From contig OZ024740.1 of the NCBI GenBank assembly GCA_964016885.1, forward strand, positions 323,578,001-323,642,000: a stretch of 64,000 nucleotides of DNA, given 5' to 3'. Below are positions 1 through 56,519 of the stretch, one piece after another. Position numbers and translations under genes: made by a program. Every line of letters begins with the position of its first letter. Position 1 is the first letter of the stretch. Under the pieces are notes generated by a model, which did not search any database, was not told the DNA's origin, and worked only from the letters and a program-made list of their open reading frames with translations. The DNA comes from Eledone cirrhosa (lineage: Eukaryota).

Positions 1-255
1 AATACATGAATACACTTACATCTAACTATACACATCAAACATATATATATATTTACTTATTTATATACATTTTCACATATATATACATACTTATGGACGT
101 TTTTAGACACATTCATTATCACATATTTGCACCTATTCTCATCAGCATATCTTTCCATTATTAGTGTGGTAATTTAAGGTTATTAATATTCTTCTAACAA
201 CTTCACCCCTCCCTCCTAATATTCTCTATAAAAACTAAATAGGTCCTCAGTAATA

Positions 256-3161: not shown

Positions 3162-3590
3162 CTCAAAGTAATTGTAGAATAAAAGAAAATTGCCCCTTAA
3201 ATGGAAATTGCTTAATTAATAATATAGTATATAAATGTGTAATCACCACTAAATACTCTAATCAATCCTATATAGGATCCACTTCTAATCCATTTAAATC
3301 GAGATTTTATGCACACACCCACAGTTTCCGAAACACAAAATTAGCAAATACCACTTCTTTAGCAGAAGCAGTTAATAATTGTAAAAAGAAGAATATTAAA
3401 TATAACCTAACTTGGAAGATTCTTAAGAGAACTATTTCTTATCAGGGCAATAGAAGGGGGTGCGGACTCTGTTCCCAAGGAATTTTTGAAATTACTAAAT
3501 CGAAGGACACTATTAAATAAAAGACAAGAATTAATTTTAGTATGTAGCCATAAAATTAGAAGCACATTCAAATATTATAAATACAACTAA
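3162..3590 (+). pseudogene. GIY-YIG endonuclease domain fragment of a Penelope-like element
   Basis: CRIKENCPLNGNCL-NNIVYK...YIGSTSNPFKSRFYAH...SF...W...CGLC; premature stop at 3518-3520. Confidence 0.85.
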
Positions 3591-19851: not shown

Positions 19852-22026
19852 TTGCGAGGTTTTTGATATGAAATCGTGTGTCGAAACAAATAATAGACAG
19901 TATGTACGTGGTATCATTATACCCATCCATTAACATTGATTTTGCTGTGGAAAATTGTGTGGAGATGATCATTGAGAGTGAAGTGGAGTTCTGCGACGTC
20001 GACACAGACGAACTGGTCCTCCTACTTAGACAGCCATGACCTTAGACGTTTCTGCCCCAGTAGACCCATACGAGGTAGACCCCCCCCCCCACCACCATAA
20101 CCTCAATGGCTAAAAAGACTCCCATGGGAAGGTGGATTGTGTGGACCAAAGCCATACCGACCCCCCAAAACAATGATCAGGTAAGAAAAATGGTCGCACA
20201 TGCAATAGGGGCTAGTATTATGACTACCCTAAAGGGCCACATATTCAAATTCAACGAGAAGATCTACACCCAAAATGAGGGAGCAGCCATTGGCGTCAGC
20301 ATAGCTGGTGACGTTGCCAACCTTTTTATGGTATGGTGAGAAAGGAGACTCAAAGATCTCCTTGATGAGAGCTCCATAGACCTCATCACGTACTCTCGTT
20401 ACGTAGACGACATCAATATAGTTATAAGGACATCCCTACAAGAGAGTACTAACAAGTTTGATTTAGAATGTAGCACAATGGAAAGCATCCAGCAGATAGC
20501 TAATTCCATACACCAGAGTATAACTGTAACTATCGACTTCCCTTCCAAACACCCTAATAATAGACTACCTGTATTAGAAACAGAACTCTGGATTAACACT
20601 ATAGACGAGAGAGCCCAAATTCTCCACTCACACTATGCTAAACCCATGGCCTCCAAATACCTGATACTCAAAAACTCAGCAATGTCCAGTAGTACTAAGT
20701 TTAATATTCTGATCGCAGATTCGGTACGAGTGATGAAGAATGTGTCCCGCATGTGCGACCCAACAGAAATGGAAAGACACATCCAACACTTCATCAACCG
20801 CATGCAGTTCTCTGGCTACAACCAAAGAGACAGAGTCAGAGTATACGAAGGAGCCATAGAGAAGTATAAGGCCCTCATAGAACTGGACATGAAAGGAATT
20901 TGCCCATTATACAGGAGCAAATCATGGAATAGCTTAGATAGGGCTAGACATAAGATAGGGAAAGCCACCTCATGGTACGACAACCAGAGATACCAGAGTG
21001 TCATGTTCGTGGACGCTACCACTGGAGTAAAATTAGCTAACCAGTGTAGAAAGGCCCTGAGAAAGACCCACTTAAAGATTAAGGTGGTAGAAAAGCCAGG
21101 AACCACCATAAAATCCCTGATCAGCAAAACCCACTGCAGTAATAGGAAATGTATTACATGTAAAGTGAACCCCCGGATAAACTGTAAAACTAGAAACGTA
21201 CTCTATAGCATAAGATGTACAGAGGGTACTTGCAGAAACATGACAACAACATACATAGGCGAGACAGCTCGTAGCATAGGTAAAAGGATAGACCAACACT
21301 GGGGGGGAACTAAAAGGACGAAAAAACGGGTCAGTACTATACGAACACGCCAGACAACAAACGACGGTAACATAGACAACATAGAAATTAGAATAATATC
21401 TAAACATAGAAATGACCCAGCAGATAGGCAAATCAGAGAGGCCAGTGAAATAGAACTTAGAAGGCCAAAGCTAAACAGAAAAAATGAATGGAATAACAAC
21501 ACCCAAACAAAAAATACCGACCTAAGAGAAGGATAAATGAATAAATAAATAAATAAATACATACACAAGCACAATAACAACAAACACATATAAACACACA
21601 CACTAGTAAACTAAGATAGAATACAATAACCAAAACACAGTCACCCAAACACGAACACACACCAAACATTATACACACGCGCAAACGCATGCGCAGAGAA
21701 GACAAAAATAAATAAATAAATGAATTAGCAGATTAAATAAAGATGGCGTAGACATACAATACAACAGGAGGAAACATAATAGCACCACTGACCACTGACG
21801 ATGTTGCAGATGTGGAACGAAAGAATTTTTTTTAGACTATATATATGTGTTTGTGTCTATATTATATCTATTTTTGACTGTTGGTCAGTCAATGGTAATA
21901 TTGAGGACCGAATAAATTGAATTAACTGATATAAAAGATACAGAAGCGAAAACCAACCAAACAGTGAGTGTGTTCTGTTATTAATTCTGGCAATATTATT
22001 ACACAAATATGACCCTCCCCATGTAT

Positions 22027-22031
<5 letters not shown>
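19846..22031 (+). mobile_element. Penelope-like retrotransposon (RT + GIY-YIG), 5'-truncated and decayed, flanked by (TA)n
   Basis: VVSLYPSI-like motif near 19905; FKFNEKIYTQNEGAAIG; RYVDDI at 20397-20414; C..C/C zinc motif, VLYSIRC...YIGETARS...R; in-frame TGA at 20337 and later frameshifts. Confidence 0.9.
20106..21536 (+). pseudogene. Penelope-like RT-GIY-YIG polyprotein, disrupted
   Basis: ORFs 20106-20339 and 20478-21536 share one frame, separated by a single TGA at a probable Trp codon. Confidence 0.85.
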
Positions 22032-22072
<41 letters not shown>

Positions 22073-23665: not shown

Positions 23666-24456
23666 TATTATATACAATGCTTCAAGTAAACTATAACATT
23701 TTATTAAATATTACATTTACAGCACGCCGTAAGAGTGGACAAACTGCTCATGGGAGTCGAACTTCGTTTCTGTTGTTTACCAGATAATCACAATAACATA
23801 CACATATATTATATACATTTATTTATTTACACTCAAACAGACATATACACATACAAATACACACAAACACATGCACGCACTCTCACATTTGCATAATTAT
23901 ATCTATCTATGCACCTATGTAATATTAACTCAATCAGTTCTCTCTGCTGCACTCTCTCTTTCTCTCTCCCCCCTCCCTCTCTCCCTCTCTCCTCCTCTCT
24001 CTCTCTCCCTCAAATCTAACAGTTTGCCTGACAATATAATTGTCTTACTATCGATCACATTCCTCCACGTATTCATCAATATAACAATCCAGCTATCAAC
24101 TAAACCCTTCCCTCTATCTACCCATCTCTCCTTGTCTCTACATATCCAAGCATTCATTCATCACTTTTCCAACCAACCCATCTATCCATACCACCATCCG
24201 CCCAACAATACATCTACCCATCCACCCATGCACCAAAATATTTATCCCCCAATCCACCCATCCATTCATCCACACTTTCTTCAAGGCCGTCCATTCATGC
24301 ATTCATCCGTGCACCCATCTATCCACCCCTGCACCGATCCCTCCACACCACCAACCCATCCGTCCACCCATTCACAGAAACATTCATCCACACAATCACT
24401 CTACCATTTATCTACATTGCCTACAACCCAGGATGGATCCATCCATCCACACAATC

Positions 24457-25400
24457 ATTCATACAACCAATCCACCCGATCCTTCTATCCAACCAGCCAG
24501 CTATTTATCCATCCGTCTACCGAACCCACCATTCATACAACCAATCCACCCGACCCTTCTATCCAACCACCCAGCTATTTATCCATCCATCTACCGAACC
24601 CACCATTCATACAACCAATCCACCCAACCCTTCTATCCAACCACCCAGCTATTTATCCATCCATCTACCGAACCCACCATTCATACAACAAATCCACCCG
24701 ACCCTTCTATCCAACCACCCAGCTATTTATCCATCCATCTACCGAACCCACCATTCATACAACAAATCCACCCGACCCTTCTATCCAACCAGCCAGCTAT
24801 TTATCCATGAATCTACCGAACCCACCATTCATACAACAAATCCACCCGACCCTTCTATCCAACCACCCAGCTATTTATCCATCCATCTACCGAACCCACC
24901 ATTCATACAACAAATCCACCCGACCCTTCTATCCAACCACCCAGCTATTTATCCATCCATCTACCGAACCCACCATTCATACAACAAATCAACCCGACCC
25001 TTCTATCCAACCACCCAGCTATTTATCCATCCATCTACCGAACCCACCATTCATACAACAAATCCACCCGACCCTTCTATCCAACCACCCAGCTATTTAT
25101 CCATCCATCTACCGAACACACCATTCATACAACAAATCAACCCGACCCTTCTATCCAACCACCCAGCTATTTATCCATCCATCCGCCTAACCCACCATTC
25201 ATACAACCAATCCACCCAACCCTTCTATCCAACCAGCCAGCTATTTATCCATCCATTCACACAACCATTCATCCAACCAATCCACCCCACCCTTCTATCC
25301 AACCACACAACTGTTTATCCATCCATCCGCCTAACCCACCATTCATCTAACGAAACCACCCAACTCTTCTCTCCGACCACCCAGCTATATAACCATTCAT
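24457..25400. repeat. 74-bp minisatellite, about 12-13 copies, degenerate at the edges
   Basis: attcatacaa recurs at 24531, 24605, 24679 and onward. Confidence 0.95.
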
Positions 25401-25595
25401 CCTCCCACCCGACTATTTTCCACTCTGCCAATCACCGTTATTTATCCGCCAGAACCAGTCATCTGTATATATTTTCTATTTAACCGTTAATCTAAGAATT
25501 AATCTATACTTCATATTTTTTTACAAAGCATTTACATATTTCATTTCTTAAATGTTTCAGTTGTGAAGCAGAATTAAAGACCACACATACGCACT

Positions 25596-41632: not shown

Positions 41633-41665
41633 CATATATATATATATAAATATATATGTATATAT

Positions 41666-44600
41666 GAATATAGACATAGAATATTCGAAAATATTCTGTA
41701 TGTTTATAATAAACATTTTGAAGACCTAATCGCTATAGAATAGAATACGTCACGTATTACAATTAGATTCTCGATAAAAGCAAGGGAAGTAATCTACGCG
41801 TTTCATTCTTGTTAGAATTCATCAGGACTACATATCCAGTGCTTTTATCGAGAATGACACAGCTAGAGACTTATAGAATACTTAGCTGTGTACAGGAACT
41901 GGTTTGAAAGAGCGGTTGCCGGTCCGGCAGAAATTAGAAATTGGAATAAATGCTCTGAAATAGCGATATATATGTGAATATAGACATAGAATATTCGAAA
42001 ATATTCTGTATGTTTATAATAAACATTTTGAAGACCTAATCGCTATAGAATAGAATACGTCACGTATTACAATTAGATTCTCGATAAAAGCAAGGGAAGT
42101 AATCTACGCGTTTCATTCTTGTTAGAATTCATCAGGACTACATATCCAGTGCTTTTATCGAGAATGACACAGCTAGAGACTTATAGAATACTTAGCTGTG
42201 TACAGGAACTGGTTTGAAAGAGCGGTTGCCGGTCCGGCAGAAATTAGAAATTGGAATAAATGCTCTGAAATAGCGATATATATGTGAATATAGACATAGA
42301 ATATTCGAAAATATTCTGTATGTTTATAATAAACATTTTGAAGACCTAATCGCTATAGAATAGAATACGTCACGTATTACAATTAGATTCTCGATAAAAG
42401 CAAGGGAAGTAATCTACGCGTTTCATTCTTGTTAGAATTCATCAGGACTACATATCCAGTGCTTTTATCGAGAATGACACAGCTAGAGACTTATAGAATA
42501 CTTAGCTGTGTACAGGAACTGGTTTGAAAGAGCGGTTGCCGGTCCGGCAGAAATTAGAAATTGGAATAAATGCTCTGAAATAGCGATATATATGTGAATA
42601 TAGACATAGAATATTCGAAAATATTCTGTATGTTTATAATAAACATTTTGAAGACCTAATCGCTATAGAATAGAATACGTCACGTATTACAATTAGATTC
42701 TCGATAAAAGCAAGGGAAGTAATCTACGCGTTTCATTCTTGTTAGAATTCATCAGGACTACATATCCAGTGCTTTTATCGAGAATGACACAGCTAGAGAC
42801 TTATAGAATACTTAGCTGTGTACAGGAACTGGTTTGAAAGAGCGGTTGCCGGTCCGGCAGAAATTAGAAATTGGAATAAATGCTCTGAAATAGCGATATA
42901 TATGTGAATATAGACATAGAATATTCGAAAATATTCTGTATGTTTATAATAAACATTTTGAAGACCTAATCGCTATAGAATAGAATACGTCACGTATTAC
43001 AATTAGATTCTCGATAAAAGCAAGGGAAGTAATCTACGCGTTTCATTCTTGTTAGAATTCATCAGGACTACATATCCAGTGCTTTTATCGAGAATGACAC
43101 AGCTAGAGACTTATAGAATACTTAGCTGTGTACAGGAACTGGTTTGAAAGAGCGGTTGCCGGTCCGGCAGAAATTAGAAATTGGAATAAATGCTCTGAAA
43201 TAGCGATATATATGTGAATATAGACATAGAATATTCGAAAATATTCTGTATGTTTATAATAAACATTTTGAAGACCTAATCGCTATAGAATAGAATACGT
43301 CACGTATTACAATTAGATTCTCGATAAAAGCAAGGGAAGTAATCTACGCGTTTCATTCTTGTTAGAATTCATCAGGACTACATATCCAGTGCTTTTATCG
43401 AGAATGACACAGCTAGAGACTTATAGAATACTTAGCTGTGTACAGGAACTGGTTTGAAAGAGCGGTTGCCGGTCCGGCAGAAATTAGAAATTGGAATAAA
43501 TGCTCTGAAATAGCGATATATATGTGAATATAGACATAGAATATTCGAAAATATTCTGTATGTTTATAATAAACATTTTGAAGACCTAATCGCTATAGAA
43601 TAGAATACGTCACGTATTACAATTAGATTCTCGATAAAAGCAAGGGAAGTAATCTACGCGTTTCATTCTTGTTAGAATTCATCAGGACTACATATCCAGT
43701 GCTTTTATCGAGAATGACACAGCTAGAGACTTATAGAATACTTAGCTGTGTACAGGAACTGGTTTGAAAGAGCGGTTGCCGGTCCGGCAGAAATTAGAAA
43801 TTGGAATAAATGCTCTGAAATAGCGATATATATGTGAATATAGACATAGAATATTCGAAAATATTCTGTATGTTTATAATAAACATTTTGAAGACCTAAT
43901 CGCTATAGAATAGAATACGTCACGTATTACAATTAGATTCTCGATAAAAGCAAGGGAAGTAATCTACGCGTTTCATTCTTGTTAGAATTCATCAGGACTA
44001 CATATCCAGTGCTTTTATCGAGAATGACACAGCTAGAGACTTATAGAATACTTAGCTGTGTACAGGAACTGGTTTGAAAGAGCGGTTGCCGGTCCGGCAG
44101 AAATTAGAAATTGGAATAAATGCTCTGAAATAGCGATATATATGTGAATATAGACATAGAATATTCGAAAATATTCTGTATGTTTATAATAAACATTTTG
44201 AAGACCTAATCGCTATAGAATAGAATACGTCACGTATTACAATTAGATTCTCGATAAAAGCAAGGGAAGTAATCTACGCGTTTCATTCTTGTTAGAATTC
44301 ATCAGGACTACATATCCAGTGCTTTTATCGAGAATGACACAGCTAGAGACTTATAGAATACTTAGCTGTGTACAGGAACTGGTTTGAAAGAGCGGTTGCC
44401 GGTCCGGCAGAAATTAGAAATTGGAATAAATGCTCTGAAATAGCGATATATATGTGAATATAGACATAGAATATTCGAAAATATTCTGTATGTTTATAAT
44501 AAACATTTTGAAGACCTAATCGCTATAGAATAGAATACGTCACGTATTACAATTAGATTCTCGATAAAAGCAAGGGAAGTAATCTACGCGTTTCATTCTT

Positions 44601-44786
44601 GTTAGAATTCATCAGGACTACATATCCAGTGCTTTTATCGAGAATGACACAGCTAGAGACTTATAGAATACTTAGCTGTGTACAGGAACTGGTTTGAAAG
44701 AGCGGTTGCCGGTCCGGCAGAAATTAGAAATTGGAATAAATGCTCTGAAATAGCGATATATATGTGAATATAGACATAGAATATTC
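41666..44786 (-). repeat. 310-bp HHR-bearing tandem array, left arm (10 full units plus about 20 bp)
   Basis: gaatatagacatag at 41666, 41976, ... 44766; HHR on the minus strand at 41789-41831 + 310k (k=0..9). Confidence 0.95.
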
Positions 44787-47385
44787 TATTCTATAGCGAT
44801 TAGGTCTTCAAAATGTTTATTATAAACATACAGAATATTTTCGAATATTCTATGTCTATATTCACATATATATCGCTATTTCAGAGCATTTATTCCAATT
44901 TCTAATTTCTGCCGGACCGGCAACCGCTCTTTCAAACCAGTTCCTGTACACAGCTAAGTATTCTATAAGTCTCTAGCTGTGTCATTCTCGATAAAAGCAC
45001 TGGATATGTAGTCCTGATGAATTCTAACAAGAATGAAACGCGTAGATTACTTCCCTTGCTTTTATCGAGAATCTAATTGTAATACGTGACGTATTCTATT
45101 CTATAGCGATTAGGTCTTCAAAATGTTTATTATAAACATACAGAATATTTTCGAATATTCTATGTCTATATTCACATATATATCGCTATTTCAGAGCATT
45201 TATTCCAATTTCTAATTTCTGCCGGACCGGCAACCGCTCTTTCAAACCAGTTCCTGTACACAGCTAAGTATTCTATAAGTCTCTAGCTGTGTCATTCTCG
45301 ATAAAAGCACTGGATATGTAGTCCTGATGAATTCTAACAAGAATGAAACGCGTAGATTACTTCCCTTGCTTTTATCGAGAATCTAATTGTAATACGTGAC
45401 GTATTCTATTCTATAGCGATTAGGTCTTCAAAATGTTTATTATAAACATACAGAATATTTTCGAATATTCTATGTCTATATTCACATATATATCGCTATT
45501 TCAGAGCATTTATTCCAATTTCTAATTTCTGCCGGACCGGCAACCGCTCTTTCAAACCAGTTCCTGTACACAGCTAAGTATTCTATAAGTCTCTAGCTGT
45601 GTCATTCTCGATAAAAGCACTGGATATGTAGTCCTGATGAATTCTAACAAGAATGAAACGCGTAGATTACTTCCCTTGCTTTTATCGAGAATCTAATTGT
45701 AATACGTGACGTATTCTATTCTATAGCGATTAGGTCTTCAAAATGTTTATTATAAACATACAGAATATTTTCGAATATTCTATGTCTATATTCACATATA
45801 TATCGCTATTTCAGAGCATTTATTCCAATTTCTAATTTCTGCCGGACCGGCAACCGCTCTTTCAAACCAGTTCCTGTACACAGCTAAGTATTCTATAAGT
45901 CTCTAGCTGTGTCATTCTCGATAAAAGCACTGGATATGTAGTCCTGATGAATTCTAACAAGAATGAAACGCGTAGATTACTTCCCTTGCTTTTATCGAGA
46001 ATCTAATTGTAATACGTGACGTATTCTATTCTATAGCGATTAGGTCTTCAAAATGTTTATTATAAACATACAGAATATTTTCGAATATTCTATGTCTATA
46101 TTCACATATATATCGCTATTTCAGAGCATTTATTCCAATTTCTAATTTCTGCCGGACCGGCAACCGCTCTTTCAAACCAGTTCCTGTACACAGCTAAGTA
46201 TTCTATAAGTCTCTAGCTGTGTCATTCTCGATAAAAGCACTGGATATGTAGTCCTGATGAATTCTAACAAGAATGAAACGCGTAGATTACTTCCCTTGCT
46301 TTTATCGAGAATCTAATTGTAATACGTGACGTATTCTATTCTATAGCGATTAGGTCTTCAAAATGTTTATTATAAACATACAGAATATTTTCGAATATTC
46401 TATGTCTATATTCACATATATATCGCTATTTCAGAGCATTTATTCCAATTTCTAATTTCTGCCGGACCGGCAACCGCTCTTTCAAACCAGTTCCTGTACA
46501 CAGCTAAGTATTCTATAAGTCTCTAGCTGTGTCATTCTCGATAAAAGCACTGGATATGTAGTCCTGATGAATTCTAACAAGAATGAAACGCGTAGATTAC
46601 TTCCCTTGCTTTTATCGAGAATCTAATTGTAATACGTGACGTATTCTATTCTATAGCGATTAGGTCTTCAAAATGTTTATTATAAACATACAGAATATTT
46701 TCGAATATTCTATGTCTATATTCACATATATATCGCTATTTCAGAGCATTTATTCCAATTTCTAATTTCTGCCGGACCGGCAACCGCTCTTTCAAACCAG
46801 TTCCTGTACACAGCTAAGTATTCTATAAGTCTCTAGCTGTGTCATTCTCGATAAAAGCACTGGATATGTAGTCCTGATGAATTCTAACAAGAATGAAACG
46901 CGTAGATTACTTCCCTTGCTTTTATCGAGAATCTAATTGTAATACGTGACGTATTCTATTCTATAGCGATTAGGTCTTCAAAATGTTTATTATAAACATA
47001 CAGAATATTTTCGAATATTCTATGTCTATATTCACATATATATCGCTATTTCAGAGCATTTATTCCAATTTCTAATTTCTGCCGGACCGGCAACCGCTCT
47101 TTCAAACCAGTTCCTGTACACAGCTAAGTATTCTATAAGTCTCTAGCTGTGTCATTCTCGATAAAAGCACTGGATATGTAGTCCTGATGAATTCTAACAA
47201 GAATGAAACGCGTAGATTACTTCCCTTGCTTTTATCGAGAATCTAATTGTAATACGTGACGTATTCTATTCTATAGCGATTAGGTCTTCAAAATGTTTAT
47301 TATAAACATACAGAATATTTTCGAATATTCTATGTCTATATTCACATATATATCGCTATTTCAGAGCATTTATTCCAATTTCTAA
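44782..47385 (+). repeat. 310-bp HHR-bearing tandem array, inverted right arm (about 8.4 units)
   Basis: Reverse complement of the left-arm unit; HHR at 45008-45050 + 310k (k=0..7). Confidence 0.95.
45008..45050 (+). ncRNA. Minimal type I hammerhead ribozyme of the 310-nt monomer (18 copies in total)
   Basis: gtagtc-CTGATGA(45014-45020)-attc-taacaa-gaat-GAAA(45035-45038)-cgcg-TA-gattac; stem I 6 bp (1 G-U), stem II 4 bp, palindromic ACGCGT; GUA site after 45044. Confidence 0.9.
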
Positions 47386-47403
47386 TATGTATATATATAT
47401 ATG

Positions 47404-47455
<52 letters not shown>

Positions 47456-47456
47456 C

Positions 47457-47525
<69 letters not shown>

Positions 47526-47526
47526 G

Positions 47527-47641
<115 letters not shown>

Positions 47642-47755
47642 TACATATATATATATACATACATACATACATACATACATACATACATACATACATACAT
47701 ACATACATACATACATGCATGCATACATACATACATACATACATACATACATACA

Positions 47756-47803
<48 letters not shown>

Positions 47804-55315: not shown

Positions 55316-55420
55316 GGAAAAAATGAAACAAAATTTCATTTCCGACTCTTAGTACTACTGTACGTCTGTATAGATATATGTATGTACGTGTACATACTTA
55401 TATATATATATATATATATA

Positions 55421-56519
55421 TTGTTATACTTGGGGAGGGTCATATTTGTGTAATAATATAGCCAGAATTAATAACAGAACACACTCACTGTTTGGTTGGT
55501 TTTCGCTTTTCGCTTCTGTGTCTTTTATATCGGTAACCTAATTTATTCGGTTCTCAATGTTGCCATTGATTGACCGACGGTCAAAAATAATACAGATACA
55601 ATATAGACACAAACACATATATATAGTTTATCAAAGTTCTTTCGTTGCACATCTGCAACATCGTCAGTGGTGCTATTGTTTCCTCCCGTTACATTGTATG
55701 TCTACGCCATTTTTATTTAGTCTGTCTATATATTTATTTATTTATTTGTTTGTTTATTTTATTTTGTCTTCTTTGCGCATGCGTTTGCGTGTGTGTATAG
55801 TGTTTTGTTTGATGTGTGTTCGTGATCGTATTCTATGTATTCTATGTATTCTATCTTTACTAGTGTGTGTTTATATGTGTTTGTTGTTATTGTGCTTGTG
55901 TATGTATTTATTTATTTATTTATCTATTTATTTATTTATTTATACTTCTCTTAGGTCAGCGCTGTTTGTTTGGGTGTTGTTGTTATTCCATTCATTCTTT
56001 CTGTTTAGTCTTGGCCTTCTAAGTTCTATTTCACTGGTCTCTCTGATTTGCCTATCTGCTGGGTCATTTCTATGTTTAGATATTATTCTAATTTCTATGT
56101 TGTCTATGTTACCGTCGTGTTGTTGGATGGCATGTTCGTATAGTACTGAACCGTTTTTTCGTCCTTTTAGTTCCCCCAGTGTTGGTCTATCCTTTCACCT
56201 ATGCTACGAGCTGTCTCGCCTATGTATGTTGTTGTCATGTTTCTGCAAGTACCCTCTGTACATCTTATGCTATAGACTACGCTTCTAGTTTTACAGTTTA
56301 TCCGGGGGTTTACCTTACATATGATACATTTCCTATTAGTACAGTGGGTTTTCTTAAAAGGGTAGGTTTTGCTGATCAGAGATTTTATGGTTGTTCCTGG
56401 CTTTTCTACCACCTTAATCTTTAAGTGGTCTTTCTCAGGGCCTTTCTACACTGGTTAGCTAATTTCCCTCCAAGGGTAGCGTCCACAAACATGACACTCT
56501 GGTATCTCTGGTTGTCGTA
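55421..56519 (-). mobile_element. Second, 5'-truncated copy of the 19.8-22.0 kb Penelope family (GIY-YIG + 3' region)
   Basis: ORF 56167-56412 (VEKPGTTIKSLISK...YIGETARSIGER) is nearly identical to the 20478 ORF. Confidence 0.9.

Follow-up and report, generated by a model that had tools for sequence, protein, structure and literature searches.

A 64,000-nt stretch of Eledone cirrhosa DNA (contig OZ024740.1, positions 323,578,001 to 323,642,000; hereafter the window) contains an array of a 310-nt unit in two orientations, at 41665-44786 and 44782-47386, and the question raised by this locus is how two arrays of one unit came to be joined back to back. We consider it probable, with some room for doubt, that the seam is the inner join of a two-armed hammerhead-retrozyme insertion which arose by Penelope-type twin priming and subsequent microhomology joining, the latter probably of the host Pol theta type. 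The window junction is an ordinary member of its family, and its value lies in the whole set of seams.

The two-armed array and its unit

The antisense arm (41665..44786, minus strand) comprises 10.07 copies of the unit and the sense arm (44782..47386, plus strand) 8.40 copies, both with zero mismatches. With unit numbering starting at the predicted hammerhead cut, the left arm extends from 130 to 109 in antisense orientation and the right arm from 48 to 172 in sense orientation. The outer end of the antisense arm at unit 130 represents the short "A" end, located beside the unit's own TA run, and the outer end of the sense arm at unit 172 the long "B" end, for which 165 is the usual position. 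The antisense arm terminates in ...GACATAGAATATTC and the sense arm opens with TATTCTATTCTATAGCG; common to both is the 5-nt microhomology TATTC (44782..44786, plus strand), which constitutes the inversion seam. Both the TATTC overlap and the single inversion described in an earlier note on this DNA were confirmed, with one inversion in the array and both arms mismatch-free compared to the 310-nt unit.

The left break is situated in the loop of an 18-nt hairpin (unit 99-116), past its first stem arm. The remaining half of the broken hairpin, GAATATTC, is found at 44779..44786 (plus strand; left breakpoint unit 109-113), and the intact GAATATT-TTCG-AATATTC hairpin of the first sense unit at 44833..44850 (plus strand). 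The right break (unit 48-52) lies outside of this hairpin, at the edge of another small hairpin (unit 37-51). As read from the sequence, a 56-nt stretch without mirror partner (44787..44842, plus strand) is flanked by perfect palindrome arms.

On both sides the array is bordered by (TA)n target tracts, (TA)n at 41634..41664 on the left and (TA)n/(TACA)n at 47387..47803 on the right. The flanks are not mirror images, as had been remarked before, and beyond the tracts only dispersed-repeat matches with 81-87% identity were observed. The B end of the window (47380-47386), 7 bases past the usual unit 165, follows a near-repeat of the same 7 letters; the B site seems to be set by the RNA sequence rather than inherited. 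Elsewhere in the window, a 74-bp tandem array of 12.8 copies (24456-25401) and two copies of a 1.1-kb dispersed repeat in inverted orientation to each other, with 86% identity (20976-22061 and 55391-56519), were found.

Each unit is predicted, from inspection of the sequence, to contain a minimal type I hammerhead motif, giving 10 + 8 cores (18 in total) at 310-nt spacing. The last of the 10 motifs predicted in the antisense arm is a motif match at 44565..44630 (minus strand). The first of the 8 in the sense arm is located at 45008..45050 (plus strand) with a predicted cut after 45044, and is covered by a weak match to Rfam HH9 (44999-45064). A search of Rfam gave zero matches at gathering level, HH9 reaching only 23 bits compared to a gathering score of 52. 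The unit is non-coding, with a longest stop-free stretch of 59 aa over three units, and 106 of its 310 bases are G or C. Of the words, no more than 6-7% were present in the runs recorded as RNA.

Animal non-LTR retrozymes are described as tandem arrays of non-coding units, each with a single type I hammerhead, for which tandem cDNA synthesis from circular RNA and mobilisation by Penelope-like elements were proposed (PMC7229834; bioRxiv 10.64898/2026.07.22.740005). The window unit resembles them in being tandem, non-coding and equipped with one predicted type I hammerhead motif per copy, the circle being hypothetical here, and judged by its tandem motifs, lack of coding capacity and GC content under 50% it agrees with the sequence criteria of this group. 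Unlike in these accounts of retrozymes, nearly every insertion of the present family comprises a back-to-back pair of arrays whose outer ends are fixed and whose seam varies. The main text of PMC7229834 does not contain the terms "inverted" or "orientation", nor does the text accessed of bioRxiv 10.64898/2026.07.22.740005 contain "inversion" or "junction". No description of two-armed retrozyme insertions or their seams was found in the openly accessible literature covered.

Geometry of the family

The exact hammerhead 43-mer occurs 2,528 times in the genome, and eight of the first nine loci among the matches listed are arranged antisense-then-sense. Based on the genome-wide counts of the two end patterns (1,010 and 1,219 matches) and on the long ends located exactly at unit 165 (34 of 53), the family is estimated to comprise about 1,500 insertions. 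Our sample consists of 111 regions, namely the window, 10 loci matching the window seam or the hammerhead 43-mer, 93 loci retrieved by the 165 end and 7 by the 130 end, after removal of one overlapping and one duplicate stretch. With a seam defined by antisense-then-sense arms and at most 40 nt between them, 103 seams, all antisense-then-sense, are present in 102 of the 111 regions, and what the earlier note had regarded as an extreme version of the Penelope geometry is thus the normal form of the family. The nine regions without a seam show a single arm, are cut by the region border or Ns, or carry a 272-nt insert. In a second sample of 60 further loci picked by the seam, a seam was present in 55; altogether the same two-armed geometry was observed at about 150 loci.

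Single arms whose inner end runs straight into (TA)n were observed as a minority outcome in L034, L066, L081, L084, L121, L143, L193, L198, and L214, and perhaps arise when second priming fails. In case of L140, a GC-richer insert of 272 nt (1399-1670) is situated between the arms, and a 36-mer taken from it has a single occurrence in the genome. On C14, one variant context is present in about 25 copies and another in 8, all within 340 kb (25.02-25.36 Mb), and together they represent a locally amplified element cluster.

The outer ends fall into two classes, A at unit 127-139 and B at unit 154-172. Usual positions are unit 130/139 and 165, with a separation of 26-35 nt in most cases and of 42 nt in the window. 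One A and one B end were found in all 99 loci with both ends classed, in the sample picked by the B end, and in 48 of the 51 loci with both ends seen that were picked by seam and not by ends. The A site coincides with the unit's own TA run and is complementary to the target, whereas the B site has only AT in common with it. The second end is fixed at unit 127-139, the seam positions are unrelated to that end, and poly(A) is absent. At nearly all loci (TA)n hides the target-site duplication, for which a length above 4 bp would be expected in an animal non-LTR retrozyme. The sole insertion outside (TA)n, L036, is bordered on either side by a repeat of about 11 bp (1483-1493 and 3253-3263), which likely represents a target-site duplication.

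For endonuclease-bearing Penelope-like elements, an inverted 5'-truncated copy, a tail of 30-40 nt at one end, and (TA)n targets have been described (PMC8557442, PMC3846280). The retrozyme family shows this footprint as well, i.e., an inverted 5'-truncated copy, a tail of 26-42 nt at one end only, corresponding to the distance of the two ends in the unit, and a (TA)n target, in good agreement with the Penelope-type inverted geometry recognized in the earlier note. The usual A-B difference of 26-35 nt matches the Penelope tail as given in PMC8557442. Unlike Penelope-like elements, the retrozyme unit lacks an ORF and both arms are multimers.

A young Penelope-like family, abundant with 132 matches scored and represented by L053:1092-4000 and L145-L174, possesses reverse transcriptase motifs, a cysteine-rich linker and a weak GIY-YIG match, and ends in (TA)n. 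It is a candidate enzyme donor, though unrelated in sequence to the unit; among 30 loci of that one family, no likeness to the unit was found beyond an adjacent array and TA runs. The Penelope-like ORF beside the L053 array was considered as autonomous partner and dismissed, since a run of N separates it from the array and its sequence is unrelated. An autonomous partner of the unit was thus not found in the one Penelope-like family compared, which counts against the preferred reading.

The same unit is present in both arms in 63 of 70 loci, compared to 7.6% between loci (30 haplotypes), and thus both arms draw on one template or source. L071 (C1:86.27 Mb) and L086 (C1:136.72 Mb) carry variants at equal copy positions whether one counts from the left or from the right outer end (copy 1, and copies 1-2 with a three-site haplotype, respectively), which suggests a heterogeneous multimeric template or conversion; such mirrored variants are more easily reconciled with fold-back, conversion or a multimeric template than with a single monomer circle. 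Among the 55 seams of the second sample, read by hand, no mirrored variants were found. In case of L064 (C1:61.29 Mb), which switches variant mid-arm, A-to-G at unit 276 occurs in all A-arm copies and in the inner two copies of the B arm, but not in its outer four; a template switch, editing during copying, or conversion are possible readings. L075 is a mosaic, and both L064 and L075, like L071 and L086, speak against a pure monomer circle. An excess of A-to-G among locus-fixed variants (9 A>G vs. 5 T>C of 40 sites) was unconvincing.

Breakpoints, microhomology and the hairpin

The arms overlap by 0-16 nt in 80 of the 103 seams, and the remaining 23 contain insertions. Overlaps average 2.34 nt compared to 0.76 nt for random breakpoints (n=80), zero overlap was observed in 10 of the 80 seams with 42.5 expected, and 9 of the 80 overlap by at least 5 nt vs. 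0.9% of random breakpoint pairs. The microhomology noticed at the window junction, for which a comparison with other copies had been suggested, is thus enriched family-wide. Of the 18 insertions with at least 3 nt, six resemble sequence close to a breakpoint (within 40 nt) more strongly than 95% of random inserts do, and some insertions are iterated or patchwork-like (L038, L103, L135, L144). The two breakpoints of a seam are independent, as their offset is uniform (KS P=0.97), a test whose outcome would not change if whole units had been gained or lost afterwards.

Theta-mediated end joining leaves short microhomologies and, at the joint, small insertions that are locally templated and in part patchwork-like; such insertions are taken as a mark of Pol theta (PMC12426944). 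With above-chance microhomology and locally templated insertions the family seams are similar to theta-mediated end joining, from which they differ in that the ends joined would be two cDNA 3' ends and that a dependence on Pol theta is hypothetical here. A 4-nt seam between unit 109 and 250 was observed in five independent loci with differing variants and lengths (L177, L194, L196, L197, L199), compared to about one expected by hand estimate, and some bias beyond microhomology therefore remains. Unit 250 is the start of the long stem in the predicted RNA fold.

Concerning the hairpin, to which the earlier note had assigned a role in the break, 202 breakpoints were evaluated, with the window and its C6 twin left out. 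Neither the hairpin at unit 99-116 (12 of 202 breakpoints, 11.7 expected) nor the second hairpin (9 of 202, 9.8 expected) is enriched. A 7-nt loop window chosen post hoc contains 9 breakpoints vs. 4.6 expected (P=0.04); this bias was rejected, since genome-wide rows are no higher than in the neighbouring window 84-90. In detail, about 53 non-indel rows were counted for the loop window (100 minus 43+3+1 judged indels by eye), compared to raw counts of 53 for window 84-90, 68 for window 62-68, of which 25 stem from one amplified cluster, and 112 for window 95-101. Among the fetched pattern rows, 35 of 40 and 19 of 20 were true seams. When a model was given weights for microhomology alone, these being derived from the same data, unit 109 came out among the top positions (2.3-fold) and received 27% of the loop window, with 14 of 42 obtained by hand count in loci enriched for recurrent rows; the pile-up at unit 109 is thus predicted by microhomology alone in the model. 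The pairing probability of the folded circle fails to predict breakpoints, as 16% of rotations score equally high. The hairpin has no detectable part in seam formation, and its presence at the window junction is a coincidence.

Formation of the seam

In L1 twin priming, two opposite cDNAs, each primed by one target strand, are joined inside the insertion; according to PMC12016303 this concerns about a fifth of insertions, with the second primer at variable internal sites and a poly(A) end. Similarly, both target strands continue 5' to 3' into antisense copies at all 103 retrozyme seams. Unlike in this description of L1, the inverted arm is the rule in the retrozyme family, both start sites are fixed, and poly(A) is absent. 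Purified anole Penelope protein was reported to cut and extend both strands in vitro, and two internal RNA start sites bound the tail (PMC11167929). Since ribozyme cleavage was dispensable for this protein in vitro (PMC11167929), a linear multimer is still possible as template. What we infer beyond the sequence is that priming took place twice, that the template was RNA (a single circle copied repeatedly or one long multimer), and which enzyme and repair pathway acted. A Penelope-type enzyme would nick both strands of a (TA)n tract, each nicked end would be extended into multimeric cDNA beginning at one or the other fixed start site, and the free 3' ends of both cDNAs would then be sealed where they share a few nucleotides, a step probably carried out by Pol theta-type end joining of the host.

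The fold-back of the earlier note would require that one cDNA primes on itself at TATTC, copies towards its start and stops about 30 nt short, the arm lengths being altered later or the cDNA being circular. Self-priming was proposed for Penelope inversions (Arkhipova) from palindromes at inverted junctions (PMC3846280). Taken alone, the window seam is compatible with a loop of 61 nt in the B-end cDNA, between unit 48 and unit 109, and a common variant in both arms as well as the mirrored variants of L071 and L086 are also in line with it. For the family as a whole, loops of at most 60 nt are not in excess (22 or 21 of 99 vs. 19.5 expected), nor are near-palindromic seam centres (8 of 103, about 7 expected), and the seam statistics do not favour the self-priming account given for Penelope. 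The A arm, which would be the copy, exceeds the B arm in length in 46 of 99 loci and in 18 of the 34 that are free of mismatches, and in the window the excess amounts to 517 nt; in eight loci the B arm comprises less than one unit and is too short to template the A arm. Of 147 loci, 47 have an A arm that surpasses the B arm by over one unit, and in 54 the reverse is true. A weak correlation of the arm lengths in the first sample (rho 0.33, n=99), a point against the preferred reading, is absent from the second (rho -0.04, n=48). Due to later unit duplication in some arrays (L056, L190, L227; several show periodic variants) the arm lengths may not be original. L064 and L094 carry arm-specific variants, which also stand against copying of one arm from the other. 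Independent breakpoints, together with the finding that now the A arm and now the B arm is the longer, argue against fold-back, which we regard as unlikely; taken as a set, the seams favour the joining of two cDNAs at their ends over a fold-back driven by the hairpin. Of the earlier proposal, the multimeric copies and the microhomology join are retained.

Twin priming could also be completed by the element's own reverse transcriptase, which would jump from the RNA to the other cDNA, with no end joining by the host. This case predicts an identical geometry as well as breakpoints that are independent and overlaps that are short, a template switch from one cDNA onto the other being possible and indistinguishable from host end joining by sequence alone, and the templated insertions could equally derive from the reverse transcriptase itself. 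The iterated patchwork insertions of L038, L103, L135, and L144 resemble those ascribed to Pol theta in PMC12426944, the main text of PMC11167929 does not report such a jump for the in vitro reactions, and a jump of the enzyme appears slightly less likely still than fold-back. A transfer of the window seam from or to another locus by gene conversion across the palindrome centre is improbable. The seam does recur once, at C6:27874970, and in both arms of L086 the outer haplotype differs from the inner one; but the C6 copy carries a 311-nt variant in all of its units and differs in arm lengths and flanks. Given that 47 different 5-nt seams are possible and that 5 of 101 seams belong to that class, the probability of such a repeat is 0.65-0.88 for 1,000-2,000 insertions, and the recurrence on C6 is thus expected from microhomology; other seams recur too. 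Least probable is an assembly or library artefact caused by a fold-back read, although the arms are 100% identical and the search for junction-spanning reads, as advised in the earlier note, yielded no bridging read or contig for the window seam among the matches listed for six runs (X1, X2, X3, X5, X23, X24; maybe from other individuals). Against an artefact, which is unlikely for the window seam, stand the non-mirrored flanks, the two outer ends belonging to the two types of the family, the same geometry at about 150 loci, and other antisense-to-sense joints, of which 13 were found in short-read contigs of X1 and one in raw Illumina reads of X23 and X24 (98 and 110 reads, respectively, with one start each).

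Twin priming with microhomology joining thus remains the preferred reading. In a variant of it, which we put forward tentatively and hold to be possible but doubtful, Penelope-type integration would lack a separate step of second-strand priming: a dimeric enzyme would prime both strands on one RNA circle, the cDNAs would roll to independent lengths, and host Pol theta would seal their 3' ends, making the "inverted 5' copy" obligatory in every completed insertion. If this holds true, the approximately 1,500 young seams would represent a natural mutation-signature library for the joining step.

What is added here are the statistics of the seams in this retrozyme family. How Penelope-like elements finish their insertion and why inverted copies remain is described as open (PMC8557442, PMC11167929), with the joining step specifically left open in PMC11167929. 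The joining of two cDNAs would explain the inverted copies of Penelope-type transposons. The seams of the family form a large, young and countable record of the final step of insertion, which favours two independently grown cDNAs over self-priming, and this reading of the seam names a host pathway that is amenable to knock-out.
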